NCBI GenBank assembly: GCA_020718275.1
Contig: DYSI01000001.1
Span: forward strand, 23,574-87,573
DNA from: Draconibacterium orientale
GTDB taxonomy: Bacteria > Bacteroidota > Bacteroidia > Bacteroidales > UBA1556
DNA: 64,000 bases
Direction of reading: 5' to 3'
How positions within the stretch are numbered: the stretch's first letter is position 1; every line of letters starts with the position of its first letter. The translations under genes and the position numbers were made by a program. Of the stretch, positions 19 through 51,211 are shown piece by piece. Under the pieces are notes generated by a model. The model did not search any database, had not been told where the DNA came from, and was given only the letters and a program-made list of their open reading frames with translations.

Positions 19-270
19 ATGAAAAGTAATTCACTTAGCAGCCTTCAGGAGCAGCTTGAATGGCTTCATAGCCAGCCGAGCTGTGCCGAAAGAGACTCAC
101 TTATCAATCAAGTGCAAGACTCGATGGAGCTTCATCACGGGCGCGGTAGCGCCTGTACGTTTACCGCCGAAAAAGAGGTGGCCGTGGCCTTTCACCAGTT
201 TCTTGAAATAAAGGATAAGCTCGCATTAATTCGCGATATCCATTTAATCATTAATAACCACAATAAATGA
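19..270 (+). CDS. Hypothetical phage early/middle protein (83 aa)
   Basis: First of a same-strand run of small ORFs with stop/start overlaps (267-270, 446-452, 709-712), typical of a phage early operon. No motif recognised. Confidence 0.5.
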   Translation: MKSNSLSSLQEQLEWLHSQPSCAERDSLINQVQDSMELHHGRGSACTFTAEKEVAVAFHQFLEIKDKLALIRDIHLIINNHNK

Positions 271-452
271 AAACAGAAAAAAGCAATCAGCAGCGGTACC
301 GGCTTCACAGCCAGATACGCAAACAGGGTTTCGAGTTGAACACCCGCCTCAGAACCATCTATATTTCAGTGGAAACGACAAACCTTACTCGACAGATAAT
401 TAGGCTAAGAAACATTTATCAATACGCTATCCAAACCTACATACCATGTTAA
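267..452 (+). CDS. Hypothetical small basic protein (61 aa)
   Basis: R/K/Q-rich ORF with a 4-nt overlap on the upstream ORF. Supported only by operon context. Confidence 0.4.
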   Translation: MKTEKSNQQRYRLHSQIRKQGFELNTRLRTIYISVETTNLTRQIIRLRNIYQYAIQTYIPC

Positions 453-712
453 AAAAAATAAAACTAACAATTGAAATCGGAATTGCCGCCGCAGAGGCAA
501 TATTAGAACGAGATGGGTATAAAATATATATTCACGACTTCGGACGGTGGGAAAGCCAAATACACAATCGGCCCGTTTGGGTAGAAAGTAATGAACGTGG
601 CATAATGCTACGGGGCGAATGGCTAACCATTGAAGAGGCTTTTAACCGACTTTACATCGATAGAATAGGCGCACATTTTAGTTTTATACTTAGTAAATCT
701 GATACAATATGA
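446..712 (+). CDS. Hypothetical phage protein (88 aa)
   Basis: Overlaps both neighbours by a few nt (translational coupling). No motif recognised. Confidence 0.5.
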   Translation: MLKKIKLTIEIGIAAAEAILERDGYKIYIHDFGRWESQIHNRPVWVESNERGIMLRGEWLTIEEAFNRLYIDRIGAHFSFILSKSDTI

Positions 713-1260
713 GGTGCGTAAAATGCGGAGCTAATGTAGTGGAAGGCTACTTTAGTCAATCTCAAGGTTTCAATTGTGTGCGCTGCTGGCAGGGTAATTC
801 TCAGAGGATAGACCTATCTTCATACACGCATGATGAACTTTTAGAAATTATTAGTACAGCCAAGGAACTACTTAAAAAAAGCAGTTCCAAAAAAATAAAT
901 TTGAGATCAGGAATCAAAGCTAAATTTTTAGAAGTCTACGAAAAGCTTTTTGGGGTCAACTACTATTGGACAGGTAAAGATGCAAAATCAACGGTTTCAA
1001 TCGTTAATAAAATCAAAACTAAACTGGCCGCCAATGGTCAAATTACCGATGAGTCACTAATTAGTGGTTTTGAGGCCTTCATTACCAAAACGTATATGCT
1101 GAACGACTCATGGCTTACCCAAAACTTTAGTCCGTCGGTAATAGATAGCCAATTTAACCAAATTTATTTGAAAATTAAAAATGGAAAATCCACAAAATCC
1201 ACTGTCACTGAGAGCTTCAGGGAGCGTGTTGCCCGCCAAGCTTACGGCCAAGGGAATTGA
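709..1260 (+). CDS. Phage protein with N-terminal zinc-ribbon-like motif (183 aa)
   Basis: N-terminus has two Cys pairs (CVKCGANV ... CVRCW). The rest is unrecognised. Confidence 0.55.
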   Translation: MRCVKCGANVVEGYFSQSQGFNCVRCWQGNSQRIDLSSYTHDELLEIISTAKELLKKSSSKKINLRSGIKAKFLEVYEKLFGVNYYWTGKDAKSTVSIVNKIKTKLAANGQITDESLISGFEAFITKTYMLNDSWLTQNFSPSVIDSQFNQIYLKIKNGKSTKSTVTESFRERVARQAYGQGN

Positions 1261-1771
1261 GCGAGCCTATAAAGGTATAGGCTCTCCGGCTCAGGCCATT
1301 GAAATAGAAAGCGTAACCCTGGCAGCCCTAATACGCACCAGCACGCAGCCGCAAGTTGAGGCGCTAGTGATGGACATGCTTATACGACTTAACGATTTAC
1401 TGAATCTAAAAAGGCCGCTCACTGAGGCCGCCATCGAAGCCATTGCCGATGAGGTGGTAAACACACACTACAACTTAACACTAGCCGACATCTCAGTTAT
1501 CATGCGCCGAGCGCTGAGCGGTTATTACGGCGAGTTTTACGAGTCTATTAATATGCCTAAGGTGCTTGGCTGGTTCAATCAATACTTCGACGAGCGATGC
1601 GAGGCATACGAGGCGAAGCATTATCGCGAAAAGCACAACTATAATATACGCGCGGAGCGCTCATATAATAATTTTCAAGATGAGATTCAGAAGCACAAAC
1701 AAGCTGCGGCAGCCTACCTGAGCGGTCAATTTAATAAAGATTTAAATAACATTGAAAGCCCATTGAAATGA
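1181..1771 (+). CDS. Hypothetical phage protein (up to 196 aa; start uncertain)
   Basis: The ATG at 1181 overlaps the upstream gene by 80 nt. The next in-frame ATG is at 1370 (GTG at 1367). No motif recognised. Confidence 0.5.
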   Translation: MENPQNPLSLRASGSVLPAKLTAKGIERAYKGIGSPAQAIEIESVTLAALIRTSTQPQVEALVMDMLIRLNDLLNLKRPLTEAAIEAIADEVVNTHYNLTLADISVIMRRALSGYYGEFYESINMPKVLGWFNQYFDERCEAYEAKHYREKHNYNIRAERSYNNFQDEIQKHKQAAAAYLSGQFNKDLNNIESPLK

Positions 1772-1974
1772 TAAAAAAACAGCACCTATTGTATAAACTA
1801 AGAGTATGCAAAATGATACTCGCAACGGACGCCTTCATTGTGGTGACCGACATTAGCCATAGCAACGGCCATCACTTTAAATATCGGCTGAGAACCTATA
1901 ACATAGGCAAAAATAAAATAAAGCGCAGGCTACTGGATAATATATATAGCCTATTTAGATTTAAAATTAATTAA
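1768..1974 (+). CDS. Hypothetical small protein (68 aa)
   Basis: 4-nt overlap with the upstream stop. Basic and AT-rich. Context only. Confidence 0.35.
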   Translation: MIKKQHLLYKLRVCKMILATDAFIVVTDISHSNGHHFKYRLRTYNIGKNKIKRRLLDNIYSLFRFKIN

Positions 1975-1989
1975 ATAAAATACACCACC

Positions 1990-2292
1990 ATGAGCAAAAT
2001 AAACAAACATCAGCTACTGAATATGGGGTTCATTCCTTATGAGTTTGGGGATAGAAATGCACCTTGGGATATAGAGGATACCATAAAATTTCAAATTTAT
2101 AAAAAGGAGGTAGCAAAAGGCATATATCTGGAGTATACTGAGGGGCAGAGCCTTAATGAAGACAGTAAGGAGTGGGAACATTTAGAGCAGGGGTGGGAGC
2201 TTAGGATTCCTGAAGGCTTTGTTTTACCCATAAACACGATGGATGAGGTAATGCAAATTCAAGAGTTTTTAAAAAAAATCGTTATAAAATAG
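1990..2292 (+). CDS. Hypothetical phage protein (100 aa)
   Basis: Clean ORF with an ATG start that ends at TAG 2290-2292. The same frame stays open for 68 more codons (see findings). Confidence 0.5.
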   Translation: MSKINKHQLLNMGFIPYEFGDRNAPWDIEDTIKFQIYKKEVAKGIYLEYTEGQSLNEDSKEWEHLEQGWELRIPEGFVLPINTMDEVMQIQEFLKKIVIK

Positions 2293-2334
2293 CGGTCCAC
2301 ACTGTTCGATCAGGGTCCGAATGACTACGAAATT

Positions 2335-2499
2335 ATGTATCTATATAAGGACGCTCAAAATAACGTTCACACACGAATCATTGATGAGAGCGGAACCGCT
2401 CAAACTGTTGAGGATGGGCTTCCGACACTGGCCAAGCTATATGAAAGAGAGGCAAAGGAAATAGTATATAAAATAAAGGCTTATAGCTTTTTGAAATAA
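2335..2499 (+). CDS. Possible small ORF (54 aa), below the ORF-track cutoff
   Basis: ATG at 2335, stop TAA at 2497-2499, directly followed by the terminator. It fills an otherwise unexplained 200-bp gap. It is in the same frame as the upstream gene. Confidence 0.3.
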   Translation: MYLYKDAQNNVHTRIIDESGTAQTVEDGLPTLAKLYEREAKEIVYKIKAYSFLK

Positions 2500-2500
2500 C

Positions 2501-2540
2501 AAAAAAAACCCCGGCAGGATCTCCTGTCGGGTTTTTTTTT
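2501..2540. terminator. Bidirectional rho-independent terminator between convergent phage operons
   Basis: 9-bp GC-rich stem (2510-2531, CCCGGCAGG / CCTGTCGGG with one G-T pair, loop ATCT). It is flanked by A8 (2501-2508) and T9 (2532-2540). Confidence 0.8.
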
Positions 2541-2572
2541 GTTGCATCAAGTTCCTGGCATCGGGAAGACGA

Positions 2573-2893
2573 TTAATCGATAATTTTGAACTCACCCTTC
2601 AGGGGTTTGTGCACGATGGGCGGCAGCGGATCGGTCTGGGACTTGGTGAGTACCAGGTCGAAGTAGTAGCGGCCTTGGGGCAGGTTGGTATCAGTACTGG
2701 AAAGCTCGAAGAGCACAATACCGGTGGCGGGCTGTTCGATGGCGCCGGTGATGGCCTTGGTGGCTTCGGCTGCCTCCATGCTGCTAAGGATGAGCAATTG
2801 GGCGGTGAAGCCAGTAAGGTTGAAAGCCTCGCCCGAGGCTGAGGTAAGGGTTATGGTGCGGGCAACGGTGGTGCCGCGGCGGATGTCGTTCAT
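2573..2893 (-). CDS. Small beta-sandwich-like virion protein (106 aa), BppU-N/Ig-like pattern
   Basis: Last gene of the minus-strand late operon, with a 4-nt overlap on the spike gene. The alternating pattern (TITLTSASGEAFNLTGFTAQLLI ... GIVLFELSSTDTNLPQGRYYFDLVL) resembles receptor-binding accessory domains. G+C-rich. Confidence 0.45.
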   Translation of the reverse strand: MNDIRRGTTVARTITLTSASGEAFNLTGFTAQLLILSSMEAAEATKAITGAIEQPATGIVLFELSSTDTNLPQGRYYFDLVLTKSQTDPLPPIVHKPLKGEFKIID

Positions 2894-4815
2894 GATATTG
2901 TAACTTTAAGGGTTTGTGCGTTGTTGATTTTAACCTTGATGGCCTCCTGGTCGGAGATGGAGGCCTTGATGGATTGATTGATATAAATTGGGGCTTCCAA
3001 GGGTGCTATAATTTCCAAATCGTCAACATTATCAGCAACCACCCAAACGCCCGGGCTTACTTCCTCCAGCTCTTCAATAGAGAGGTCATCGTTGGTGACG
3101 AGCTTTCTATTAGAGGAGAAAGTGGCCAGACCTTCAGGAGAAGTGAGACCTTGTGTTTGGTTGTATTCAATATCTGCAGATGCAATGGGATTGCCATTGG
3201 CTTTGATGCCTATGAAGTTTAGAATGCGGGTGAAGAGTTTTGGGGAGGGTATAGCCTTTAGGGATATAACTTGTTTTAGGCGTGAATTTACTTGAATACC
3301 AGTAATTTTTATTGGTAAATAGTTGTCGTTTGAGACTTCAATTGTAAATGGGTTGAAATCAATCCTTATACAATTGTTGTCATTTTCAACACCACCAACT
3401 GTTTGAGCCAAAAGTTCTATGCAGAACCAATAGATTGATAGCGTTTCAATTACTCCATTTACATCTGAAATAGCGGTAGCCACAACTACCCCATTCTTAT
3501 CTTTGATATTCAGGGTAGCTCCTTGAATTGGGACTCCTGATTCCGTCACTATTGTGAAATTGGCACTATTGCCTAACTTCACTTTTGGATTTCCGTAATT
3601 GCTCGCATAAGTATAAATGTAAAATAAAGGCCTATACATTTTAACACCATTCAAAAAGAAACTGCAGTCAATAAAGTGGTTGGTAAATCCGATTTGATTG
3701 TTCCCGTTTCCTGTAATAAAAATCTGATAGGCTATATTTGTACAATTGAAAGAAAGGTCACTGAAATACTTGTGCGGCGGGTTTCCAAAAGATTGAAGAA
3801 CTGAGCAAAAAGTAACTTGCCTTGTAGGCTGGTCACTATTTACGGAAGGCAACTGGATGGCATTCCCAATCTGCACGCTGTCTATTTGCGTTTTTGAAAA
3901 ACCTTCATAGTAATTGTGCAAGAAACAATATTTCGCAGTTCCAGAACTCCACGCGTGCGCAGCTCCACTACTAAACCCCCAACAAAATCCGTTCTTTTGG
4001 TAATAAATTTGCAAATATGGAAATACTACTGCTGTGAAATTTACTTTCGCTAGTGTTGTAGAGCTTCCCCATCCACCACGTTTAAAGATGAAAATTGTGG
4101 TAGTTGTATTGCTGTAAGATGCGAATATTTCTGATGTTCCCACACTGTACATTCCTCCAAGAAATAGCAATGTAGAGGCTGACAGGTTGATTCTACCAGT
4201 AGAAGCTGGATTAATTAAAAGAGAATAAGTTGTTAATAGTTGATATTGGCTATTTGAAAGTAAGGTGAGGTATGGTTTCATGGCTATATAATCTTCACCA
4301 TTGACCATTGCACTATCCCTAACTGCATTGATAATATTAAAGGTGCTACATTCAGTTGTTGCAAGTATTTCAATCACTCCAACTCCCTTGTCGGGTCGTA
4401 AATTGAAAAAGAATTCAGAAGGCTCATATTGTTTTAAAGTGCCTAAACGGGCATTAAAGTAGTTAGTCTTAATATCGCAATAAATAGGAAATTGAGTCAA
4501 TTTAGCCCCTTCCGCGTAAGAATAATTTCCTTCTCCTGCATGATCTTGGTAAGTAGTTGCTGTTTTTTGGAAAATATAAAATCTTGTTGTGAGAGGGTCA
4601 TAGCTTAACCATGTAAACCGCACTCCTTGTCCTGCAGTTAATGTAATTTGTTTTTCTACGCCTATACTATCGTACATATACAGTGCAGCACCTGGTCCAC
4701 TATGAGAATATATACCAAATGTATAGGTACCTGCAGGAAAATTGCCCCCCGAAATAGCACTTAAACTAAAATCAGGAGCAATAGGGGGTGGTTTTATGGT
4801 GATTGTTACCGCCAT
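2890..4815 (-). CDS. Large virion protein, probable tail spike / receptor-binding protein (641 aa)
   Basis: Long ORF in the late operon. The central N/S/T/aromatic-rich region has beta-helix-like repeats (NIAYQIFITGNGNNQIGFTNHFIDCSFFLNG). One segment resembles a carboxypeptidase-regulatory-like beta-sandwich (GATLNIKDKNGVVVATAISDVNGVIE). Composition within the gene is mosaic. Confidence 0.55.
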   Translation of the reverse strand: MAVTITIKPPPIAPDFSLSAISGGNFPAGTYTFGIYSHSGPGAALYMYDSIGVEKQITLTAGQGVRFTWLSYDPLTTRFYIFQKTATTYQDHAGEGNYSYAEGAKLTQFPIYCDIKTNYFNARLGTLKQYEPSEFFFNLRPDKGVGVIEILATTECSTFNIINAVRDSAMVNGEDYIAMKPYLTLLSNSQYQLLTTYSLLINPASTGRINLSASTLLFLGGMYSVGTSEIFASYSNTTTTIFIFKRGGWGSSTTLAKVNFTAVVFPYLQIYYQKNGFCWGFSSGAAHAWSSGTAKYCFLHNYYEGFSKTQIDSVQIGNAIQLPSVNSDQPTRQVTFCSVLQSFGNPPHKYFSDLSFNCTNIAYQIFITGNGNNQIGFTNHFIDCSFFLNGVKMYRPLFYIYTYASNYGNPKVKLGNSANFTIVTESGVPIQGATLNIKDKNGVVVATAISDVNGVIETLSIYWFCIELLAQTVGGVENDNNCIRIDFNPFTIEVSNDNYLPIKITGIQVNSRLKQVISLKAIPSPKLFTRILNFIGIKANGNPIASADIEYNQTQGLTSPEGLATFSSNRKLVTNDDLSIEELEEVSPGVWVVADNVDDLEIIAPLEAPIYINQSIKASISDQEAIKVKINNAQTLKVTIS

Positions 4816-4816
4816 C

Positions 4817-5059
4817 CTACAACTCCTCCAATTCAGTTATCTGATCACTCAACCTTTGCACTTCCATCTGGCGTTGCATAGCGTCAGAATAGTAAGGGTG
4901 CATCATGCGGGCAAAGGCCATGAGCTCCTCATCGCTTGGAGCTTGCATATAATTTTGGGCTTGCAGTTCTGCGAGCCTCGCTTTAAGTTGGTCAAGGTCT
5001 ATCACCTCTGGAGTGGTGGTGTCAGGGAGAAAGAGGTTTGTGTTTGGAATACGTTTCAT
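4817..5059 (-). CDS. Hypothetical phage protein (80 aa), coiled-coil-like
   Basis: Tightly packed in the late operon (4-nt overlap upstream, 1-nt gap downstream). Contains heptad-like segments such as LKARLAELQAQ and QRLSDQITELEEL. Confidence 0.5.
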   Translation of the reverse strand: MKRIPNTNLFLPDTTTPEVIDLDQLKARLAELQAQNYMQAPSDEELMAFARMMHPYYSDAMQRQMEVQRLSDQITELEEL

Positions 5060-5517
5060 GATTTAGTAATTTTAAGGTTTAACAATAATTCTTTAGCCTC
5101 TTTTGAGGCTGAGGTATCTTCGAGTTTGATGCGGTACTGCTCTACGAAGTCGCAGAGCTCGCTATGGTTGTGGTCGGGGGTGGAGCTCTCGCGGATGGGT
5201 CGGGCGGTGGTGTCGGATCGGAAGCGTGCCAGGGCGAAGTGCAGAAGGTCGCAAAGTTTGAGGGCCGCAAGTGGGTCTGAGTGCACGAGATGGAAGTTGA
5301 TACGGATATCCGATTCCTGGGTGGTGTTGTTTTTTTGCGACCAATTGGTTGGTAGCAGCTCAAGGAAAACGGCAGGGGTTGGGAAAGGTATTTCTTCTTC
5401 GATAAACTCTAATTGGTTGTTCCATAAGTCGGCGTGCAGGAATATAGGGGCCGCCTCATCATCGGGGGTGAAGTTGAGGAGGTATGCGGTTAGGTTGGTA
5501 AGTAGTTTTGCTCTCAT
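5056..5517 (-). CDS. Head-tail connector/neck-size protein (153 aa), function uncertain
   Basis: Position is immediately after the gpG-like morphogenesis gene. Size is typical of head-completion proteins. No firm motif. Confidence 0.35.
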   Translation of the reverse strand: MRAKLLTNLTAYLLNFTPDDEAAPIFLHADLWNNQLEFIEEEIPFPTPAVFLELLPTNWSQKNNTTQESDIRINFHLVHSDPLAALKLCDLLHFALARFRSDTTARPIRESSTPDHNHSELCDFVEQYRIKLEDTSASKEAKELLLNLKITKS

Positions 5518-7498: not shown

Positions 7499-8736
7499 AA
7501 AAAATCGTAATGCTGTTTAGAAGGTGGTTGCTGCTGTTGGGCCTGTTTCATGCCCTTAACCGGCGCATTATAGCGTTCGGCAAAGTAAGCGGGATCGACA
7601 TCGCAATAAGTAGCCAAGAAGGTATCAATAGCAAGCTGCTGTTCGGAAGTGTATTCGATGCTTTCGTCCCAGTCGAAGCGATAACCGGCTAAAGGAAATC
7701 CGTGAATGTTAGTGAGAAAAGGGAAAAGCTTATTATTGATTACGTCGCGTATAAAATCCTTATCGGCCCAAAGCAAATTATCCTGAATACGCTCGTGTAC
7801 TTCGCCTTGGGATTTGGAAGCTCCATTATCCATCGTCATCGTATTACCCAAAATACCTTTGGACATTTCGGAGTTGGCGCGGTCGATACGCTTGTCATAT
7901 ACGTTGAAAGCGTCGCCCTGAGAGCTGCCAATGATTTGTAGCGTGGTTCCTTCGGGGAATAAGCCCCATGCCGCGCTACCCATGTTGGCTAACATGGACT
8001 TGATTTCGTTTTTATCTTTGACGTCCCTGGAGTTGGTAGTTCCGACTCGTATGGGCATTCCGAATATCTCGCCAAACTTATCCCAAAAAGCAAACTGATT
8101 TTTTTTAGAAATTGTCTGGGGGCACATTTTCAGAAGTAGCCCAAGGTTTTTGTTTTTTCCAACTGATATACACCAGTCCGCAAGAGGGCTAGTCGTATAA
8201 TCCAGGCCCTTTTTAGGCTCATCACTGGCGTCGCGAATAATTACGCCAAACTCCGGTATAACGTGCTCTCTGGGGACAAGCTCCACAGAGGTGAACCCTA
8301 GCCTAGGCTCGGTGATCCTGTTACCAAATTGAATAAGGCTGTGGCCATAAAAAACCGAATCAAGGCTTAAATCAATGAACTCCTTGAACCACTCAGCCTC
8401 GAATAGCTCAGTTAGTTCTGGTTTTTCCTTCCCGTTTTTATCAACGATCTTGAAACCCATGGCCATTGTTTCTGCTTTGCGGTTGCTCATGGCCCCGCTC
8501 AAGTGAAGGTCGATTACTGCATCGTCGTAGATGAGCAATAAGTTGTTGCGTTTTGGGTTTTCGTAATTGATGGCTTGTTGCCATGCCTGCCTCCATTTAG
8601 CCACATCTTTAGCAGTAAGCTGCTTGGTTGAAATGGCTAGGTCTATTATCATTGATTGCACCTCTTTACGTGCAAGGGCGTCTCTAAAATATGCTTCGTT
8701 TTCCATATTACCAGTTGTATGAATTAGGTGAATCAC
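7495..8736 (-). CDS. Portal protein (Mu gpH / DUF935-like by position)
   Basis: 413 aa, lying between the large terminase side and the MuF-like gene, which is the invariant portal position. The acidic C-terminal region and the size fit. Confidence 0.7.
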   Translation of the reverse strand: MIHLIHTTGNMENEAYFRDALARKEVQSMIIDLAISTKQLTAKDVAKWRQAWQQAINYENPKRNNLLLIYDDAVIDLHLSGAMSNRKAETMAMGFKIVDKNGKEKPELTELFEAEWFKEFIDLSLDSVFYGHSLIQFGNRITEPRLGFTSVELVPREHVIPEFGVIIRDASDEPKKGLDYTTSPLADWCISVGKNKNLGLLLKMCPQTISKKNQFAFWDKFGEIFGMPIRVGTTNSRDVKDKNEIKSMLANMGSAAWGLFPEGTTLQIIGSSQGDAFNVYDKRIDRANSEMSKGILGNTMTMDNGASKSQGEVHERIQDNLLWADKDFIRDVINNKLFPFLTNIHGFPLAGYRFDWDESIEYTSEQQLAIDTFLATYCDVDPAYFAERYNAPVKGMKQAQQQQPPSKQHYDFF

Positions 8737-9118
8737 TTCCGTACATTATTGAGCCAGGGTTATCGTCTGTGGTAGCAGCCACTGGCAGGTTAGGCATAAT
8801 TTTGCCGCCGGCTACCTGTTCGAGCCATCGGGTTGCCGCATCGTAGCGAAGCTGGCGAACCTCCATGCCCATGCGTTGTGGCAGCTTTGCAAAAAGATGG
8901 TATAGCGTGATATCGGCGAGATACATCACGATAGCCTGATTTCGCTGCGCCCCTGAAGCTGAGAAAATAGCATCGGTATTGAAGCGGCCATTGAGGTACG
9001 ACTTCATTTGGTCGATAGCCATAGCCTCCGAGGAACTCCGGAGCGAGGGTTCGCAGTTCTGAACCACCTTGAGTTGAATGTCGTCTATGATGACGTTAAA
9101 ATCTTCAATTGTAAGCAT
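8708..9118 (-). CDS. Mu gp36 / DUF1320-like head-associated protein (136 aa)
   Basis: Small ORF between TerL and the portal, overlapping the portal start by 29 nt. The pattern (AMAIDQMKSYLNGRF ... IVMYLADITLYHLF) resembles the gp36-like family. Confidence 0.4.
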   Translation of the reverse strand: MLTIEDFNVIIDDIQLKVVQNCEPSLRSSSEAMAIDQMKSYLNGRFNTDAIFSASGAQRNQAIVMYLADITLYHLFAKLPQRMGMEVRQLRYDAATRWLEQVAGGKIMPNLPVAATTDDNPGSIMYGSDSPNSYNW

Positions 9119-9120
9119 GA

Positions 9121-10629
9121 TTAATAATTTGAATAAGAAGCTGAGCGTTGGCCAAGCTCCGGTTTAAAGTTTTCGATACGAGTACGCTTTTGAATCAAGT
9201 AAATAGCCCCTTCGTCGGCATCAGGAGCATCATCGGCCACACGGCTGCCTTTTTCGATAGCGAGCGTTTGCTCAATACCGCGAAGCATATCGGGGTCGTT
9301 TTGTTCGTCGATATTATAAGTAATAAATCCGCGTTCCCAGAGTGGGCTAATGGCTTCGATGCGCTGGAACTTATCGGGTTTTTTGCGATTGTCGGGGCGG
9401 ATAGGCAATTGATAGCTGCGAAGTTTACCCTCAGCTTCAAATTCATCTAAGAGGATGTCCTGATAAAATGAGGCCTCAATATAGTAATCACAAATAACTC
9501 CTTCAGGCAGCGACTCATGAAAGTCGTACCACCATTTAACCATTGAACTGACGGAAGCCTGCCGAACGAATGCTTTGATATGATGAAGCTGCGTTCCAAC
9601 TTTGCCCCATACTTTGATAGCCTTGTAGTCGTTTTTTGTGGTTCCCTTAAACGAGGGGTCGCAATATGCGATCATGTGGTCGTATTTTTTGAGCGAAAGC
9701 ATTTTACCCCACTTAATCCAGTCGTGTTTGAAAACCGCTCCTTCAGATACTGGGTTATTCATATACTCCTTTTGAAATCGGCGCTCGCCCATGAACTCCC
9801 GAACCTTTTGAATTTCCTCAACGGTGTATTTTTCGCTCCAGCTTGGCTTGCCATTTTTATCAATCGCGTTAACCTGAGTAACAAAAACGTCAGGGCGTTC
9901 AGCGATGCTAGATAGAATACAAAATTTCGCAATTTGGTTGCCAACTACGATAAAGCGGCCACGCCACATATCCATGGTGCCGCCTAATGCTTCGATACAC
10001 CAGTCGGTTGCTTTTCTTACCCTCTTTTCGTTTTCCACCAATTCGTCATCGTCAATATCGTCAATAACGATATAGTCGGGGCGTTTGCCCCGCTCTTTGA
10101 TACCTCTGGGAGATTGAGAGCGGCCAACAGCCATGAACATGCAGCCATCCTGCGTGTGAAACTCTCCATCTTGCCAGCTGCCATGATTGAATTGAACGCC
10201 ATAGTCGTGAATATAACGTTGGTTGTGTCCGAACTCGGCCTGAAGGTCGCCAAGTAGCCTGATTGCTGCATCTTCAGATTTTGAGGCCAGCAGCATTACA
10301 TTGATTTGTCGGGGCTCTTGAATTTTGAGCCACATAGGAATCATCACTCCCATGTGGGTAGACTTAGCATGTCCACGCGCCCACTTAAATACGGCCTTTA
10401 GATTGGGAGTTGTAAGGATTTTATTTGCCGCTTTAATGTGAAATTTAGCTGATGGCGTATTGGCAAAGTGCGGGAAGTAATAGCTTACAAAAAAGGCATA
10501 GTCCTTTCGGGCCCTGCTTAATCGGGACTGCTTTTGGCCAGGGGTTTCATTAAAATTAACCGCTGTTTTGTCTTGGATATTTTTACAATGCTCCTGCCAC
10601 TTTTTATATGCCGCGTCTAAATTTGACAT
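9121..10629 (-). CDS. Terminase large subunit
   Basis: 502 aa. Walker-A-like KWARGHAKST, Walker-B-like PDYIVIDDIDDDE, and a C-terminal nuclease-like region. It lies upstream of the portal. Confidence 0.85.
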   Translation of the reverse strand: MSNLDAAYKKWQEHCKNIQDKTAVNFNETPGQKQSRLSRARKDYAFFVSYYFPHFANTPSAKFHIKAANKILTTPNLKAVFKWARGHAKSTHMGVMIPMWLKIQEPRQINVMLLASKSEDAAIRLLGDLQAEFGHNQRYIHDYGVQFNHGSWQDGEFHTQDGCMFMAVGRSQSPRGIKERGKRPDYIVIDDIDDDELVENEKRVRKATDWCIEALGGTMDMWRGRFIVVGNQIAKFCILSSIAERPDVFVTQVNAIDKNGKPSWSEKYTVEEIQKVREFMGERRFQKEYMNNPVSEGAVFKHDWIKWGKMLSLKKYDHMIAYCDPSFKGTTKNDYKAIKVWGKVGTQLHHIKAFVRQASVSSMVKWWYDFHESLPEGVICDYYIEASFYQDILLDEFEAEGKLRSYQLPIRPDNRKKPDKFQRIEAISPLWERGFITYNIDEQNDPDMLRGIEQTLAIEKGSRVADDAPDADEGAIYLIQKRTRIENFKPELGQRSASYSNY

Positions 10630-26365: not shown

Positions 26366-27433
26366 ATGAATAAACGGATTTGGACATATATTCTGGGAAT
26401 CAGCGCCGCTTTTCTGATTTTAATCCTAACAGATTTTCTATTGGTTTATGCCGAGCAAAATCATCCCGACAGTAAAGTACATTCCTTCGGAGATGCCGTT
26501 TGGTATATGATAGTTACCATAACATCAGTAGGTTATGGCGACATTGTGCCAGTTACGCCTTTAGGAAAAGCCATAGGATACTTCTTTTTATTCACAAGTT
26601 TAGTTGTTCTCGGAGTTTTAATCAGTAGTATGACATCAAATATTTCCAAAATGATACAAGAAAACAAATTAGGTTATAACGGAACTAATTTCACCAACCA
26701 TGTAATATGTATTGGGTGGAATGATTTTAGCCGGATGGTGGTAGACGAAGTCTTGCAGGCAGAACGCAAAGTAGCCATTATCACTAACAACAAAGATGAA
26801 ATCGATTTGATTTACAAACAGTACTCCAATAATGACGTTTTTGTACTTTATGCAGATTACCAGGATTTAGATTTACTCAACAAAACCAACCCAAACGAAT
26901 CCTCAGAGGTATTTTTAGGTTTTAATAATGATACCGAAACCTTAATTTACGTCATTAATTTCAAAAAGAAATATCCAAAACCAAATATTGTGGTAGCCAT
27001 CAACAACCACAAATTGAGGGACACTTTTCATACCGCAGGCGTAAAACATGTGGTAGCAATCAACGAATTAGCAAGCAAATTAGTGGCTTCGTATGTATTT
27101 GAACCAGATGTCGCGAATTTGAATATTGATTTACTAAGTTCTGCAAAAAATGACGAGGACTTTGATAATCAACAATATGTAGTTACTGAGAGTAATCCTT
27201 TTTTGAATAAGAATTATGATGATGCCTTTGTAGCTCTCAAAATGAAGTATAATATTGTGCTCCTTGGAATCACCAAACACAAAGATGGTCACAATCAATT
27301 AATCGTAAATGCAAGAGCAGATACCATCATCGAAATAAACGATTACCTGATTATTATGGTTGGCGGAAAAGTAAAACGAAGAGTAGAAAAACTTTTTGGT
27401 ACTAAAGAAGGTAAAATATGTTGTAAAAGTTAA
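26366..27433 (+). CDS. Two-TM potassium channel with cytoplasmic RCK (TrkA-N/TrkA-C-like) domains, MthK-like
   Basis: Selectivity filter TITSVGYGD between two TM helices. The C-terminal region has a Rossmann-like fold (HVICIGWNDFSRMVV) and a TrkA-C-like end. Confidence 0.85.
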   Translation: MNKRIWTYILGISAAFLILILTDFLLVYAEQNHPDSKVHSFGDAVWYMIVTITSVGYGDIVPVTPLGKAIGYFFLFTSLVVLGVLISSMTSNISKMIQENKLGYNGTNFTNHVICIGWNDFSRMVVDEVLQAERKVAIITNNKDEIDLIYKQYSNNDVFVLYADYQDLDLLNKTNPNESSEVFLGFNNDTETLIYVINFKKKYPKPNIVVAINNHKLRDTFHTAGVKHVVAINELASKLVASYVFEPDVANLNIDLLSSAKNDEDFDNQQYVVTESNPFLNKNYDDAFVALKMKYNIVLLGITKHKDGHNQLIVNARADTIIEINDYLIIMVGGKVKRRVEKLFGTKEGKICCKS

Positions 27434-27506
27434 TTTTTCAATTACATTTGTATTCAAATTTGTAATACACGTTTTAATAAAGCATACAAAACTTAAAATA
27501 AAAACT

Positions 27507-28601
27507 ATGAAAAGTAAATTTACAATTTTCCTTGCAGTAATATTGATTTCGATTTTATTTGGTAATATTACAATGGCGCAAAATGCTAGTGATGTTGAAG
27601 CACCTAAATTGACAATAGTGACGGGCTTTGTTGGTGGATCTAATTACCAAATGGCGATGGATATGCAACGCATGACCCGTAAAGAATTAGGGATTCCAAA
27701 GTATAAAATAGTAACAGAATCAAAAGCTGTTTTAAATGCTAAAGGCGATACTGTTCGTGAAGAACCAATTGAAGATGGCGGAATTGGAGCTCCAAAGTTT
27801 GAAACAATTGAGCATACAGTTGCTACTGGTGACACTATTAACTTCTTAAAAGTTTTGGATTCGGAAGGTAGTTACTACAATTTTATCAAAATAAATAAAT
27901 CAGGAACCGAGCTAGCCTTTATTCAATACGATGTTTTGCTTTTTGAAGCGATGCAAGACCTTAAACGTTCTTACAAAAAAACTGATGGAATAAGAGTTTT
28001 GTTGCCAATGGGTTCAGAACAAATTCATATTATCACCCTCAAATCTGATGATAAAAAAGGTATTACCAAATTTGCTGACCTTAAAGGCAAAAAAGTTGGT
28101 ATCGGTTCAAGTTTGATGGGAACAAATATTACCTCTAAATACATTAAAGAAGTTACCGGTATGAAATGGGAAGATGTGGAAATTCCTTTCGACAAATCCT
28201 TCAAAGCCCTATTCAATGGTTCTATTGATGCCTTTTTCTATGTAGGTGCTAAGCCAGTTAAGGATTTAGCCAATGCAACCCCTTCTATGAAAAACAAACT
28301 TACGCTTATCTCAATTCCTCAAAACGAAACCCTTGATAAAGCATATCAAAAAGTAACCATCACCACCGAAGATTACAAATGGCTTAGTGAAAATATTGAA
28401 ACTTACGCCGTAAGATCATTATTAGTAACCTCACTAAACGGACATAATGCAGAGATAGAAGCAAATATTCAAAAACTATTACAAATTGTAAAAGACAAAA
28501 AAGGTTCAGACCAAAACCACCCAAATTGGAAAATGATCGAATTCAAAAAAGATGATTCCATTGATTGGGAATACTATCCTGCAGCTTTAAAATTATATTA
28601 A
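27507..28601 (+). CDS. Secreted TAXI-type (TRAP-associated/PhnD-like) solute-binding protein, orphan
   Basis: Signal peptide MKSKFTIFLAVILISILFGNITMAQ. Motifs include TGFVGGSNYQMA and KKVGIGSSLMGTNITSKYI. The ATG at 27507 is preferred over the track start at 27396, which overlaps the channel gene. Confidence 0.6.
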   Translation: MKSKFTIFLAVILISILFGNITMAQNASDVEAPKLTIVTGFVGGSNYQMAMDMQRMTRKELGIPKYKIVTESKAVLNAKGDTVREEPIEDGGIGAPKFETIEHTVATGDTINFLKVLDSEGSYYNFIKINKSGTELAFIQYDVLLFEAMQDLKRSYKKTDGIRVLLPMGSEQIHIITLKSDDKKGITKFADLKGKKVGIGSSLMGTNITSKYIKEVTGMKWEDVEIPFDKSFKALFNGSIDAFFYVGAKPVKDLANATPSMKNKLTLISIPQNETLDKAYQKVTITTEDYKWLSENIETYAVRSLLVTSLNGHNAEIEANIQKLLQIVKDKKGSDQNHPNWKMIEFKKDDSIDWEYYPAALKLY

Positions 28602-49204: not shown

Positions 49205-51076
49205 CTAATCCTCTTTGGTTTCCGACGCTATTTTATTTGACAGGTCATCGCTGTCTTTGATTATTTTGGGTTTAAAAACCACAGAGAAAACATGTAAAGC
49301 GCGATATTGCTGCGAAACATCTTCGGCATATTGCTCAGAATAATAACTTTCGGTCAAATAGGCCGTTCCACCAGCAATCTGTACTTTTTCGAGATCTGAA
49401 AAACGTTGGTGGATTGCAAGTTCTTGTTCCTTATTTTGAGGCACTACGGCAATCCTAAAAAGATCGATATCGTCGGCTTCACCAATATATTCCCTGATGA
49501 TTCCTGTTAATTCCGCTTGAATTAGAGCCTCTTCCTTGCTAACAACGCCATCGGCACTGATAAGTAAGTTAATCACGTCAATCAAATGGGAGGCTTGCTC
49601 AAATGAAGGTGAACTACTTAAATAATGCCTAAGCGCCTGCCGTAGCAAATTATAGTGATTACCACTTTCATCCTTGTATTTTTCAATTTCATCCCAATCG
49701 ATATTCAAATGCCAATTGCTGGCAAAATGCTCAATATACTTTTTTTCCTTCTCATCTAAATCATTATCAATCATCGCTAAACGTCCTAGAATTTCTAAAA
49801 TCTTATCCGCAGCAGTAGGTTGAAATAATGATTTAGCTAAATCTCCAGCCTCACGACGTTCTAGATTAAGTGCTTTGAATAATAATTTAATAAAACTTGC
49901 TCCTTTATTCGTATTGACAAAAAAACCGATACCAATAACAAAACTAGTTGAACTCGCTAAAATCCACAATATATTATTAGAAAGTTGGGCATAACCTTCA
50001 ACACTAAGATTTTTGATAGCGAAAGAAGAATTTATTAGCAAGGAAATAAACATTGCAGAAATGGAAATACTTTCTGCCACCATTTGCTCGTGTTTACGTT
50101 TCCATAATTTATTGATAATGAAGTAAACCTGAAAGAAACTCAACAAAGCAGCCAGCCAACCGATTGAATCAAGGACTTTTTCTTTCATAGTATATTCCTC
50201 CTTAAAAACAGGCCAATCCACGTTTTCCATGTCAGAAAATTCCACACTTTTCCACTTTGGATGCGAATACTTATTTAATTGAATGCCATGCAAATTATAT
50301 TTCAAATCAGCATATAAACTATCCATCATCAGAAATTTAGCAGCATCTAAATTATTAACATTCAAAACTATAACTGTTTTTATGGTATACGTATCTACTT
50401 CATCCAGTTGCCATGGGTAGGTTTTTTTGGGAATAGTTCGACGCACATAACATTGATTATCGCCTGAAAGTTTAATTGAAACCAGTTGCAATTGGTTTTG
50501 TATTTCGGGTGACAAAGAGGTCACCACATTAGAAGGAGCAGCCCCAACGAAGAAAAAAGCGTCAATTTGATTATTAAGTAAGGCGGGAATAGAACGCTCA
50601 AAGTCGAGCAAGGAGTCTGTCCAATCAACGATTGCCATCTTTTTGATTGACTGAGCGGTAAAATAAGTACCTGAATTAATTCCACCCACGCCGACACGTT
50701 TGCCGATCAAATCATTAACTGTTTTTATATTATTCCGTTTTAGGCTAATAATTTGAATTTCCTCGTCGTAAAGTGGTAGAAATACTTTAATCTTTTCTTT
50801 AATGGAGGGGGCTTTTTGTCCAAAATCATAAAGCACATCATACTGAATAAAAGCTAATTGGATGCTATCAGTCTGCAAGAGGTGTAAATTCTCAATACTA
50901 CCTTGAGAGGGATATATCTTAGTTTGCACGCGGGTGTTGTTACTTATATCGGTTGCAAACTCATTATAAACTTCGGATTTTAAGCCCGAAGCAATGTTTA
51001 TTTGACTCCAAACAGCCGTAGGGTTTAAAGCCATTAAAAAACTTATTATCAAAAACTTAAATAAACTCTTGCGCAT
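49205..51076 (-). CDS. Fusion protein: secreted TAXI-type binding domain + 3 TM helices + TerB-like domain + unknown C-terminal domain (623 aa)
   Basis: Signal peptide. The binding domain is a paralogue of the 27507-28601 product (LAFIQYDVL, KRVGVGGINSGTYFTAQSI, IDAFFFVGAAP). Three hydrophobic helices follow. Next comes LGRLAMIDNDLDEKEKKYIEHF ... LISADGVVSKEE, which is TerB-like. Confidence 0.6.
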   Translation of the reverse strand: MRKSLFKFLIISFLMALNPTAVWSQINIASGLKSEVYNEFATDISNNTRVQTKIYPSQGSIENLHLLQTDSIQLAFIQYDVLYDFGQKAPSIKEKIKVFLPLYDEEIQIISLKRNNIKTVNDLIGKRVGVGGINSGTYFTAQSIKKMAIVDWTDSLLDFERSIPALLNNQIDAFFFVGAAPSNVVTSLSPEIQNQLQLVSIKLSGDNQCYVRRTIPKKTYPWQLDEVDTYTIKTVIVLNVNNLDAAKFLMMDSLYADLKYNLHGIQLNKYSHPKWKSVEFSDMENVDWPVFKEEYTMKEKVLDSIGWLAALLSFFQVYFIINKLWKRKHEQMVAESISISAMFISLLINSSFAIKNLSVEGYAQLSNNILWILASSTSFVIGIGFFVNTNKGASFIKLLFKALNLERREAGDLAKSLFQPTAADKILEILGRLAMIDNDLDEKEKKYIEHFASNWHLNIDWDEIEKYKDESGNHYNLLRQALRHYLSSSPSFEQASHLIDVINLLISADGVVSKEEALIQAELTGIIREYIGEADDIDLFRIAVVPQNKEQELAIHQRFSDLEKVQIAGGTAYLTESYYSEQYAEDVSQQYRALHVFSVVFKPKIIKDSDDLSNKIASETKED

Positions 51077-51211
51077 AAACTTAATCTTAGAAGGAATTCA
51101 TAAGCAGCAAATTTACAAAACTGCTGCAAATAAACAAGTCCTTTTTATGATCCTCTTAAATTGTAATTTTTTTTAAATGACGAGGAGTTCTAAAAAATTA
51201 GAGGGTGAAGT

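Follow-up and report, generated by a model that had tools for sequence, protein, structure and literature searches.

A TAXI-type Solute-binding Domain Fused to a Widespread Three-helix, TerB-like Membrane Module in Bacteroidota: A Candidate Transmembrane Receptor

Introduction

Venus-flytrap domains are built into GluR0-type ligand-gated K+ channels and BvgS-type sensor kinases, in which the output is a channel pore or a histidine kinase. Membrane-anchored proteins of the TerB clan, which carry paired acidic motifs, include TerB (PF05099), the N-terminal domain of DjlA and YebE/DUF533, and roles in envelope or metal stress are associated with DjlA and YebE.

Characterized binding proteins of the TAXI class are standalone periplasmic proteins or lipoproteins of ~300-350 aa whose gene lies beside a fused TRAP-QM gene; "orphan" and lipoprotein-anchored TAXI proteins are also common, and in TAXI-GltS the domain is fused N-terminally to a genuine secondary transporter (PMC12344293). 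These TAXI-GltS fusions, reported only in 2025, are the first exceptions to standalone TRAP partners and show that membrane machines of other kinds can acquire TAXI domains. The glutamate-binding contacts of VcGluP, a TAXI protein, are Y45, S75, Q93 and E125 (PMC11574862). TAXI as a built-in receptor domain is not reported in the literature on signalling by solute-binding proteins (SBPs) that we examined.

Here, we describe a gene in a 64,000-nucleotide stretch of Draconibacterium orientale DNA (the whole stretch analyzed, hereafter the window) in which, unlike in the characterized TAXI proteins, the TAXI domain is the N-terminal part of a membrane protein of 623 aa. As in TAXI-GltS fusions and the BP0403-GltS system, an N-terminal TAXI domain is covalently joined to a membrane protein other than TRAP-QM (PMC12344293); however, GltS is a recognized elevator-type Na+/glutamate symporter, whereas the membrane part of the window protein consists of only three helices and continues into a large cytoplasmic cassette, TerB/ferredoxin-like, that has no known transport function. 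The fused gene is a second, unrelated recruitment of TAXI, to a membrane module that is neither a known transporter nor a known signalling protein.

Results and Discussion

The Fusion Is a Single, Conserved Gene

The gene occupies positions 49205..51076 of the window on the minus strand as an uninterrupted open reading frame of 623 aa with an ATG start (ORF listing of the window) and a stop codon at 49205-49207 (minus strand). One gene caller's version of the protein (P0001, 609 aa) starts at M15, which truncates the signal peptide; homologues favor a start at M1. Approximately 80 protein clusters from different sources share 44-65% identity with the window protein and all are full length (~620 aa), the identical 623-aa protein is encoded by 8 contigs, with at least two samples represented, the invariant residues of adjacent domains keep a constant spacing among 64 homologues, and the fusion is present in 13 species-representative genomes, all of them Bacteroidota. 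The fusion gene is thus real and conserved in Bacteroidota, and the initial annotation, which read it as one polypeptide, was correct. A frameshift introduced by sequencing or assembly, or chimerism of the contig, that joined a TAXI gene to a separate gene for a TerB membrane protein (an idea that stems only from both halves existing as separate genes elsewhere and for which we found no support) has negligible probability given that the ~80 independent clusters keep the full-length frame, the same protein recurs on the 8 contigs, and the fusion recurs in the 13 genomes with invariant junction spacing.

An Intact TAXI Domain at the N-Terminus

The protein begins with a signal peptide (residues 1-23, MRKSLFKFLIISFLMALNPTAVWSQ...; 51008..51076, minus strand) that has its hydrophobic peak at residues 13-17 and no lipobox Cys; the region is poorly conserved in sequence, yet present in homologues. 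The TAXI-type solute-binding domain follows (residues 24-292; 50201..51007, minus strand) and is recognized above cut-off by both TIGR02122 (101.4 bits, cut-off 84.35) and PF16868 (80.4 bits, cut-off 27, E=2e-22). Its AF2 model (pLDDT about 90) is matched by Foldseek to 9ibo, 8s4j, 1us4 and 8u79 with E=2e-18 to 7e-15 and TMt 0.76-0.78. Residues 24-292 are a true member of the class of TAXI TRAP binding proteins represented by VcGluP (8S4J/9IBO) and TtGluBP (1US4/8U79), with the two-lobed Venus-flytrap fold and the Tyr/Ser/Gln/Glu contacts kept. Indeed, alignment via 1us4 makes Y37, S60, Q78 and E105 the equivalents of VcGluP Y45, S75, Q93 and E125 (PMC11574862), and all four are invariant in 64 homologues; the equivalent of VcGluP Y200 is not Tyr. 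An amino-acid or glutamate-type pocket thus appears intact and is predicted to bind, the ligand of the ectodomain probably being an amino acid.

The initial annotation had described the first ~290 residues as a TAXI paralogue of a channel-linked binding protein elsewhere in the window (27504-28601), and the relationship is borne out by an alignment of 33% identity over 251 residues (E=4e-39). The sequence blocks on which that description drew are all found, with LAFIQYDVL in both proteins and the pairs GKRVGVGGINSGT / GKKVGIGSSLMGT, IDAFFFVGAAP / IDAFFYVGAKP, HPKWKSVEF / HPNWKMIEF and VDW / IDW. No TRAP membrane gene lies within +/-5 kb at the window locus or at five other loci. The current annotation of fused members, "TAXI family TRAP transporter solute-binding subunit", masks two-thirds of the fused protein.

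Three Transmembrane Helices and a Highly Conserved Cytoplasmic Loop

A short helical linker and a three-helix transmembrane (TM) bundle span residues 293-389 (49910..50200, minus strand). Hydropathy places TM1 at ~303-321, TM2 at ~336-354 and TM3 at ~368-387, and because K/R-rich stretches follow TM1 and TM3 the N-terminus should lie outside and the C-terminus inside. All three segments are helical in the AF2 model, with a module-model pLDDT of 88-97 in the linker/TM region. Hydropathy, charge bias and AF2 together agree with the topology proposed at the outset, in which three TM helices separate a binding domain outside from the remainder inside. The linker is of fixed length (W288..Q316 spacing 27-28 aa), and in related proteins that carry an IPT domain in place of TAXI the last strand leads directly into TM1, which suggests mechanical coupling between ectodomain and membrane.

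No other element of the family is as conserved as the cytoplasmic TM1-TM2 loop (NKLWKRKHEQMVAESIS, residues 322-338; 50063..50113, minus strand), whose mean majority frequency is 0.89 among fused members and 0.86 across the wide standalone family, where the TM cores stand at 0.47-0.49. Within the fused subfamily, the loop is followed in conservation by TM2 (0.84), and helical-face analysis reveals a polar stripe of invariant residues (S338/S345/N349/N356 in TM2 and N368/W371/S375 in TM3, on one face of each helix) that is not conserved in standalone relatives. This pattern is equally compatible with an oligomer interface, a polar pathway or a signalling network.

The Cytoplasmic Cassette Combines TerB-like and Ferredoxin-like Domains

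An acidic juxtamembrane linker helix follows TM3 (residues 390-417, ...LNLERREAGDLAKSLF; 49826..49909, minus strand; AF2 helix at module residues 101-123), in which E406, E409 and L413 are invariant. It leads into a TerB-like six-helix domain (residues 418-531; 49484..49825, minus strand), which has a Pfam TerB match and, in the AF2 model, helices at module residues 126-236. TerB is defined by two repeated acidic (D...E) motifs, and those present here (D437/E444 and D509/E516/E522) do not vary among 91 sequences. Both of the motifs from which a TerB-like domain was initially proposed fall in this region, LAMIDNDLDEKEKKYIEHF within the Pfam TerB match (residues 415-453) and LISADGVVSKEEA holding the family-invariant D509 and E516. 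The assignment stands at the level of the family, in which TerB is detected at E<=1 in 19 of 19 module members (best 3.6e-7), P0206 scores 39.9 bits against a gathering cut-off of 24.4 and many homologues carry a precomputed PF05099 annotation; it does not stand for the window protein alone, which scores 14.5 bits as the full protein and 16.9 bits as the module (E=0.008-0.043). No TerB structure is among the top 50 Foldseek matches, for which the query was the multi-domain module model that may mask single-domain matches.

Residues 532-603 (49268..49483, minus strand) are modelled as a ferredoxin-like domain (AF2 module residues 246-307, pLDDT 90-95) with the beta-alpha-beta-beta-alpha-beta topology of RAM/ACT-like domains and conserved VVPQ, AGG, YSE.YA and YR motifs. 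Its Foldseek matches are weak, to the Lrp/AsnC RAM domain (2w25/2vbw; prob 0.85-0.93, E~0.04-0.06) and to the small subdomains of PKS AT, and this C-terminal domain (CTD) alone has no Pfam match at E<=10. The chain ends in a helix and an unconserved, variable tail (residues 604-623; 49208..49267, minus strand; helix modelled by AF2 at module residues 309-327 with a pLDDT of about 70). The ~110-residue terminal region first noted as being of unknown fold is thus modelled (pLDDT >90) as the ferredoxin-like domain and then a helix.

In having a TerB-like domain at the cytoplasmic face, held by N-terminal TM helices, the protein resembles the membrane-anchored proteins of the TerB clan. It is unlike them in its sub-cut-off TerB score and the absence of a ter operon or J domain, and in its distinct three-TM bundle with the NKLWKRKHE loop, added ferredoxin-like domain and extracytoplasmic binding domain.

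The Module Is Widespread and Autonomous

The module of residues ~295-623 has 360 matches among 50%-identity representatives. Most of these are standalone proteins of ~315 aa that align from residue ~5 and belong to Cyanobacteria, Ignavibacteria/Kapabacteria, Gemmatimonadota and Cytophagales; they are named at best "TerB family" (NCBI name "TerB family tellurite resistance protein"). The conserved TM1-TM2 loop, used as a search pattern, retrieved 75 genomic loci, and among the 75 species-representative genomes 13 have the TAXI-fused form and about 9 have an N-terminal extension of 120-165 aa (IPT/TIG where tested), the remainder being standalone. TAXI occurs at the N-terminus of the module in Bacteroidota only. 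By these sequence comparisons, the module is autonomous and widespread, and TAXI is only one of several N-terminal additions to it, points that the initial annotation had not noted.

Soluble proteins of ~800 aa also end in the TerB-like and C-terminal domains, with no TM part, which suggests that the cytoplasmic cassette is a self-contained functional unit; for the N-terminal ~620 aa of these proteins, neither Pfam nor the PDB gave a match other than a sub-threshold one to cNMP-binding domains. The wide family as a whole conserves the cytoplasmic loop and the TerB acidic residues but not the TM cores. Almost nothing of a standalone member is exposed to the periplasm, and the core's own function need therefore not be sensing.

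Two profiles searched against PDB chains detected no sequence relative of the module, and Foldseek, queried with the high-confidence model of the module, returned nothing from the PDB at E<=1e-3, giving weak ferredoxin-fold matches only. NCBIfam and PADLOC gave no match to the module or to its standalone relatives, so a role in a defence system is not indicated. We found no curated family model for the module and no mention in the literature of a TAXI+TerB protein or of TAXI/NMT1_3 as a built-in sensor domain, in keeping with the earlier remark that this architecture is not known as a characterized family. The fused gene reveals a large, cross-phylum family (three TM helices, TerB-like and ferredoxin-like domains) for which no curated model or structure was found. 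It also bears on the wider question of TerB domains, since the TAXI ectodomain, via its probable amino-acid ligand, offers an experimental handle on the role of a TerB-type cassette.

A Candidate Receptor and Its Alternatives

We tentatively propose, on sequence and structural models and at somewhat less than an even chance, that the fused protein is a single-chain transmembrane receptor in which a ligand-binding ectodomain has been grafted onto an older, widespread membrane module. An extracytoplasmic ligand-binding domain, a TM part and a cytoplasmic domain are present in one chain, as they are in receptors of the GluR0 and BvgS types, where TM helices couple an extracytoplasmic SBP-fold domain covalently to a pore or to a module in the cytoplasm; unlike these, the window protein has no detectable output and its SBP is of the TAXI class. 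Swappable ectodomains (TAXI, IPT/TIG) on a constant core are typical of receptors. The real and conserved architecture, the TAXI identity and fold with its intact invariant pocket, the N-out/C-in topology, the autonomous core, the occurrence of the cytoplasmic cassette without TM helices, the conservation of the cytoplasmic loop and TerB acidic residues over that of the TM cores, and the fixed linker all count in favor of a receptor, as do the lack of a conserved transporter neighbor and of a SemiSWEET/PQ-loop signal in Pfam or Foldseek (see below).

In such a receptor, ligand-driven closure of the TAXI domain would shift TM1 relative to TM2 and TM3, which would reposition the basic loop and the juxtamembrane helix and hence the TerB/ferredoxin-like cassette; the cassette might then alter its oligomeric state or its binding of a cation, small ligand or partner protein. 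Beyond TAXI and the weak TerB match, Pfam, NCBIfam and PADLOC recognize no output domain (kinase, MCP, GGDEF/EAL, HTH or channel pore), so we infer the signalling step in its entirety and expect the output to be either an interaction between proteins or the binding of an ion, perhaps linked to homeostasis of the envelope or of ions.

The polar stripe of TM2 and TM3 and the alignment of the TM part to SemiSWEETs count against a receptor and lend some weight to a second, rather less probable explanation, in which at least two three-helix bundles form a SemiSWEET-like path, the TAXI domain captures and delivers a glutamate-like amino acid, and the TerB/ferredoxin-like part regulates or dimerizes the assembly from the cytoplasm. 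The TM part shares with SemiSWEET/PQ-loop proteins (4QNC, 4RNG, 4X5M) three TM helices within ~90 residues, the N-out/C-in orientation, similar helix lengths, spacing and loop positions, and a weak full-length profile alignment. With a 90-sequence profile, hhalign aligns all three TM helices to SemiSWEET in one register over 66-73 columns (score ~21-22, P~0.002-0.003) with a probability of 15% (A3) or 10.6% (A1), compared with 2.5% for the reversed profile and <=1.2% for 20 column shuffles, a lenient control for TM proteins; a 3-sequence profile gives 2-4%. TAXI-GltS offers a precedent for fusion to genuine secondary transporters (PMC12344293), the ferredoxin-like (RAM/ACT-type) C-terminal domain could drive oligomerization, and the well-conserved TM2 of the fused subfamily has a one-sided Ser/Asn stripe that is missing from the standalone family.

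However, a probability of 10-15% is low, the PQ-loop/SemiSWEET resemblance suggested by the initial annotation finds no further support, and we do not class the protein with SemiSWEETs. Neither PF04193 nor PF03083 matches at E<=1 in 19 module members, whereas true SemiSWEETs carry both, and no SemiSWEET structure is among the top 50 PDB matches of the module model in Foldseek. The PQ dipeptide is absent, the hhalign register places PQ on non-conserved F/I positions, TM1 has no Pro, and Q316 aligns elsewhere than the SemiSWEET PQ and lacks conservation across the wide family. Large soluble domains are also absent from SemiSWEETs, and a conserved 230-residue cytoplasmic cassette is unexpected for a minimal uniporter. 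The TM cores of the wide family are poorly conserved, and most of its members have no binding domain. No conserved transporter neighbor was found across the fused loci examined.

A broader proposal, which we regard as speculative and rather unlikely, is that the three-TM, TerB-like and ferredoxin-like core belongs to an undescribed class of membrane device, coupled to TAXI in Bacteroidota as either a binding-protein-gated, SemiSWEET-like oligomeric transporter or channel for a solute similar to glutamate or a new class of receptor with the TerB/ferredoxin-like cassette as its output; the device may act with the K+ channel-TAXI pair that the same genomes contain and so link external glutamate to K+/osmotic homeostasis.

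It is improbable, though conceivable given the invariant acidic pairs of the TerB-like domain, that the protein is a TerB-type envelope or metal-stress protein similar to DjlA or YebE, with TAXI or IPT/TIG modulating it or binding envelope components rather than nutrients. The only recurrent neighbor, a gene for a periplasmic FKBP_N+FKBP_C PPIase, lies directly downstream on the same strand at 19 of 77 loci, with fused, IPT and standalone forms among them, and would suit an envelope role; it is absent from the window locus, and the neighborhoods examined contain neither ter operon genes nor metal transporter genes. The TAXI pocket, moreover, retains its amino-acid-binding residues, and a stress role overlaps with a receptor more than it excludes one.

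Still poorer prospects attach to a membrane part that merely keeps the TAXI domain at the inner membrane, or co-localizes two independent functions, while the TAXI domain serves a separate transporter (TRAP-QM, a GltS-type or other carrier, or the paralogue's K+ channel). Orphan and lipoprotein-anchored TAXI proteins are indeed common (PMC12344293), and two loci place the fused gene near possible partners: at L082 it lies ~300 bp from a K+ channel and TAXI pair resembling 26366-28601 of the window, and at L002 it is flanked by genes for a giant AA_permease protein and for an SCFA transporter. Across the fused loci, however, no such neighbor is conserved, a lipobox would be sufficient for tethering in Gram-negative bacteria, and TAXI is joined in every case to one and the same 330-residue module, with a linker of fixed length and a co-conservation of TM2 and TM3 specific to the subfamily, far beyond what an anchor needs.

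Upstream Region

A scan of the locus for sigma-70 promoters performed no better than shuffles, and promoter and terminator scanning was uninformative. By eye, a possible promoter box, TAAATTTG, can be read with low confidence 31 nt upstream of the ATG (51108..51115, minus strand), by comparison with TAnnTTTG, which we take to be the Bacteroidetes-type -7 consensus.

An intact gene with a new domain combination

A single unbroken ORF beginning with ATG (49205..51076 on the reverse strand in the ORF listing of the window) encodes the 623-residue fused protein. A homologue search that took in 5.8 billion proteins returned 88 matches, about 80 of them full-length (~604-650 aa) with 44-65% identity, from NCBI, JGI, ENA and Logan assemblies; the identical protein is present on eight contigs (the two places shown represent different samples). 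Across 64 aligned homologues, invariant residues of adjacent domains keep a constant spacing: W288 of the TAXI domain and Q316 of TM1 lie 27-28 residues apart, the periplasmic loop comprises 11 residues, and E522 and P546 are separated by 22-23 residues. The full-length homologues, the eight contigs and this constant spacing exclude a chimera or the frameshift that the initial annotation had considered as an artificial joining of two genes. Public gene calls differ on the start codon (P0001, 609 aa, starts from M15; P0002 is 557 aa), and both alternative starts remove the signal peptide (affecting 51035-51076 of the reverse strand); comparison with homologues supports M1 as the predicted start.

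According to a 2025 paper, a TAXI solute-binding protein (SBP) is typically a two-lobed protein that stands alone and whose gene accompanies TRAP membrane genes; TAXI-GltS fusions and an elongated lipoprotein form are presented there as without precedent (PMC12344293). In the window protein, the TAXI domain is fused to a membrane module. Neither a review of SBP signalling nor a survey of SBP ligands lists TAXI/NMT1_3 among built-in receptor domains, and they name glutamate as its sole structurally documented ligand (PMC8050422, PMC10443332). We found no mention of a TAXI-TerB architecture in open-access papers and bioRxiv. The fused architecture is a new combination of known kinds of domain, and its core module an uncharacterised but widespread family. 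This architecture is clean, conserved and mis-annotated; its function is predicted from sequence and models, and the TAXI ligand offers a tractable handle.

The TAXI domain

The first ~290 residues align with the TAXI binding-protein ORF at 27504-28601 (33% identity over 251 residues, E=4e-39), and all of the blocks previously quoted as shared (LAFIQYDVL, a G-rich block ending in GT, IDAFF.VGA.P, HP.WK..EF and [VI]DW) fall within this alignment, bearing out the claimed paralogy with the channel-linked binding protein. The TAXI assignment itself also held: the window protein scores 101.4 bits against TIGR02122 (cut-off 84.35) and matches PF16868 at E=2e-22. In an AF2 model of the full protein, pLDDT is about 90 across the TAXI domain, and the top Foldseek matches of this part are the glutamate-binding TAXI structures VcGluP (9ibo/8s4j) and TtGluBP (1us4/8u79), with E-values of 2e-18 to 7e-15 and TMt of 0.76-0.78. 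VcGluP contacts its ligand through Y45, S75, Q93, E125, Y200 and M201, of which Y45 and Q93 are critical (PMC11574862). Mapped via the 1us4 alignment, the window protein has Y37, S60, Q78 and E105 as counterparts of the VcGluP contacts Y45, S75, Q93 and E125, and all four are invariant in the 64 homologues, which makes a functional pocket of amino-acid type probable.

A widespread membrane module

The hydropathy profile shows a signal-like stretch at the N-terminus and, further along, three hydrophobic ones (about 303-321, 336-354 and 368-387). K/R residues are enriched in the loop that follows TM1 (NKLWKRKHE) and again behind TM3, so the positive-inside rule predicts a periplasmic binding domain and a cytoplasmic location for the C-terminal 230 residues. 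Hydropathy, charge bias and the AF2 helices thus agree with the three helices and cytoplasmic TerB side originally proposed.

The TerB claim survives at the family level but not for the window protein alone, which scores 14.5-16.9 bits, below the Pfam cut-off of 24.4. Every one of the 19 aligned module sequences matches TerB at E<=1 (lowest E 3.6e-7), and P0206, a divergent relative, scores 39.9 bits. The two acidic motifs (D437/E444 and D509/E516/E522) show no variation across 91 sequences; we accept the predicted domain as TerB-like on this basis. A separate AF2 model of residues 295-623, built from a 91-sequence alignment mostly of standalone relatives, has a mean pLDDT of 90.8. On the membrane side, it comprises three TM helices, one short helix within the cytoplasmic loop and a long juxtamembrane helix; on the C-terminal side, six helices (TerB-like) precede a beta-alpha-beta-beta-alpha-beta domain, and a last helix ends the chain. 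The last ~110 residues, described earlier as an unknown fold, are therefore modelled as a ferredoxin-like domain. Foldseek of the module model against the PDB gave no match at E<=1e-3, and its recurring weak matches are all ferredoxin-fold (Lrp/AsnC RAM domains 2w25/2vbw, prob 0.85-0.93, and small subdomains of PKS acyltransferases). PDB sequence searches with two module profiles, NCBIfam and PADLOC searches with the module, and Pfam on the C-terminal domain (CTD) alone returned nothing.

An exhaustive HMM search with the module profile over 1.84 billion 50%-identity representatives matched 360 proteins at E<=1e-3, of which 170 have E<=1e-30. Most of the 360 are 305-335 aa long and align from about residue 5; these are standalone 3TM-TerB-ferredoxin proteins. 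The main finding is thus that the C-terminal two-thirds of the fused protein is an autonomous module. A second, word-indexed search found standalone relatives from Okeania, Moorena, Nostoc, Cytophagales and Ignavibacteria named "hypothetical" or "TerB family tellurite resistance protein" at source. A subgroup of ~425-447 aa instead bears an N-terminal lipoprotein signal and an IPT/TIG domain (PF01833, 28.9 bits in P0102). Among 75 loci from species-representative genomes, the TAXI fusion occurs in 13, all Bacteroidota (Bacteroidales, Prolixibacteraceae, Saprospiraceae), and an N-terminal extension of 120-165 aa in about nine; the rest are standalone (Gemmatimonadota, Kapabacteria/Ignavibacteria/Chlorobiota, Cytophagales, Cyanobacteria, Marinimicrobia). 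Soluble proteins of ~800 aa (P0201, 845 aa; P0216, 812 aa) end in TerB+CTD without TM helices; a sub-threshold cNMP-binding-like stretch just upstream of this cassette is the only Pfam or PDB match in their first ~620 residues. Given the standalone distribution and these TerB+CTD-only proteins, TAXI is a lineage-specific N-terminal addition onto an older core module, and TerB+CTD a portable cassette in its own right.

A candidate single-chain receptor

The best-supported reading of the window protein, a tentative one, is a single-chain transmembrane receptor. The TAXI domain would close on an amino-acid-type ligand; through the short helical connection of fixed length to TM1, closure would displace parts of the three-helix bundle; by way of the conserved basic loop and the acidic juxtamembrane helix, this movement would reach the TerB/ferredoxin-like cassette, which might then alter cation, ligand or partner binding, or oligomeric state. 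The observed domains, topology, pocket residues, fixed linker, autonomous core and portable cassette form the basis of this reading, to which we add an inferred coupling and output. Its main weakness is that no recognised output domain was found in the window protein. The cytoplasmic TM1-TM2 loop (consensus N-K-L-W-K-R-K-H-E-x-x-V-A-E-S-x-S) is the most conserved segment in both the fused and the wide family (majority frequency 0.89 and 0.86), and the juxtamembrane helix, with E406/E409 invariant, is its plausible partner.

The main rival, which we consider unlikely, is a tethered-binding-protein transporter or channel built of oligomerised bundles. It has a precedent in TAXI-GltS (PMC12344293) and draws on a subfamily-specific polar stripe: in TAXI-fused proteins, the invariant TM2 residues S338, S345, N349 and N356 lie inside a 40-degree helix arc, and N368, W371 and S375 share one face of TM3. 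Standalone relatives do not conserve these positions, a contrast partly due to the fused set being less divergent; the enrichment of TM2 over other domains of the same fused proteins is real (0.84 versus 0.64 for TAXI and 0.70 for TerB). However, TM cores are poorly conserved in the wide family (majority frequency 0.47-0.49), and profile and fold tests were negative. PF04193 and PF03083, both matched by genuine SemiSWEETs, gave no match at E<=1 in any of 19 module sequences. With hhalign, the TM part reached 2-4% against 4QNC (sequence confirmed), 4RNG and 4X5M (via PDB search), and 15% (wide family) or 10.6% (fused family) against a 90-sequence SemiSWEET alignment, this weak alignment scoring about 21-22 over 66-73 columns with all three helices in the same register. 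Controls gave 2.5% (reversed) and <=1.2% (20 column-shuffled, a lenient control that destroys TM periodicity). In this register the PQ dipeptide falls on non-conserved hydrophobic residues, and TM1 is without proline. The PQ-loop/SemiSWEET resemblance suggested initially thus does not amount to demonstrated membership, and leaves room for a distant structural analogy.

A TerB-type envelope or metal-stress role, overlapping the receptor reading, is less probable still and is hinted at by an FKBP_N+FKBP_C PPIase, the sole recurrent neighbour in clustering of 77 loci. In 19 loci its gene comes next after the module gene, in the same direction (median gap 40 bp), namely L001 (7339-8082) and L010, L013, L032, L035, L040, L044, L046, L048, L050, L052, L057, L062-L064, L067-L069 and L075, which include TAXI-fused, IPT/TIG-fused and standalone forms; an example sequence has a lipoprotein-type N-terminus. 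No FKBP gene occupies the downstream position in the window. That the module merely anchors the TAXI domain is the least probable reading, as the junction is fixed and co-conserved.

Taken together, the initial annotation was confirmed in its architecture as observed, and supported in part in its interpretation.

Genomic neighbourhood

Upstream of the window gene lies a gene for 5-formyl-THF cyclo-ligase, and downstream lie those for a DEAD-box helicase and GMP synthase. A TAAATTTG box, which we take to agree with the Bacteroidetes -7 consensus, lies 31 nt before its ATG, and the gene is probably transcribed singly. No transporter is conserved beside the fused gene across the fused loci examined: neighbours are an AA_permease protein and an SCFA transporter in L002, thioesterase and POR genes in L081, and lipase and FKBP_C genes in L083. 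In L002 (Bacteroidales), a 1720-aa AA_permease-domain protein and a 245-aa protein precede the fused gene and an SCFA_trans family transporter follows 12 bp after it, all on the same strand (55-5217 and 7885-9171), an arrangement that no other examined fused locus shares.

At 26366-28601 (+) of the window, the TAXI paralogue comes directly after a K+ channel gene (Ion_trans_2 + TrkA_N, 355 aa). The mechanical ORF of the paralogue begins with TTG at 27396 (+), overlapping the channel gene end (27433); the ATG at 27504, opening a signal-peptide-like sequence (MKSKFTIFLAV...), is the more plausible start. An orthologous channel (Ion_trans_2+TrkA_N) and TAXI pair in L082 (7183-9396 (-)) is separated from the fused gene by ~300 bp and is convergent with it, and L014 has a convergent second TAXI gene, truncated where the contig ends. 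Channel and binding protein together may constitute a split ligand-gated K+ channel, perhaps with a functional link to the fused protein.

Standalone 3TM-TerB modules occur as a tandem duplicate in a Kapaibacterium locus (L056, 7693-8655 and 8709-9668) and as two copies ~15 kb apart on one Pseudanabaena contig (L038 and L076).
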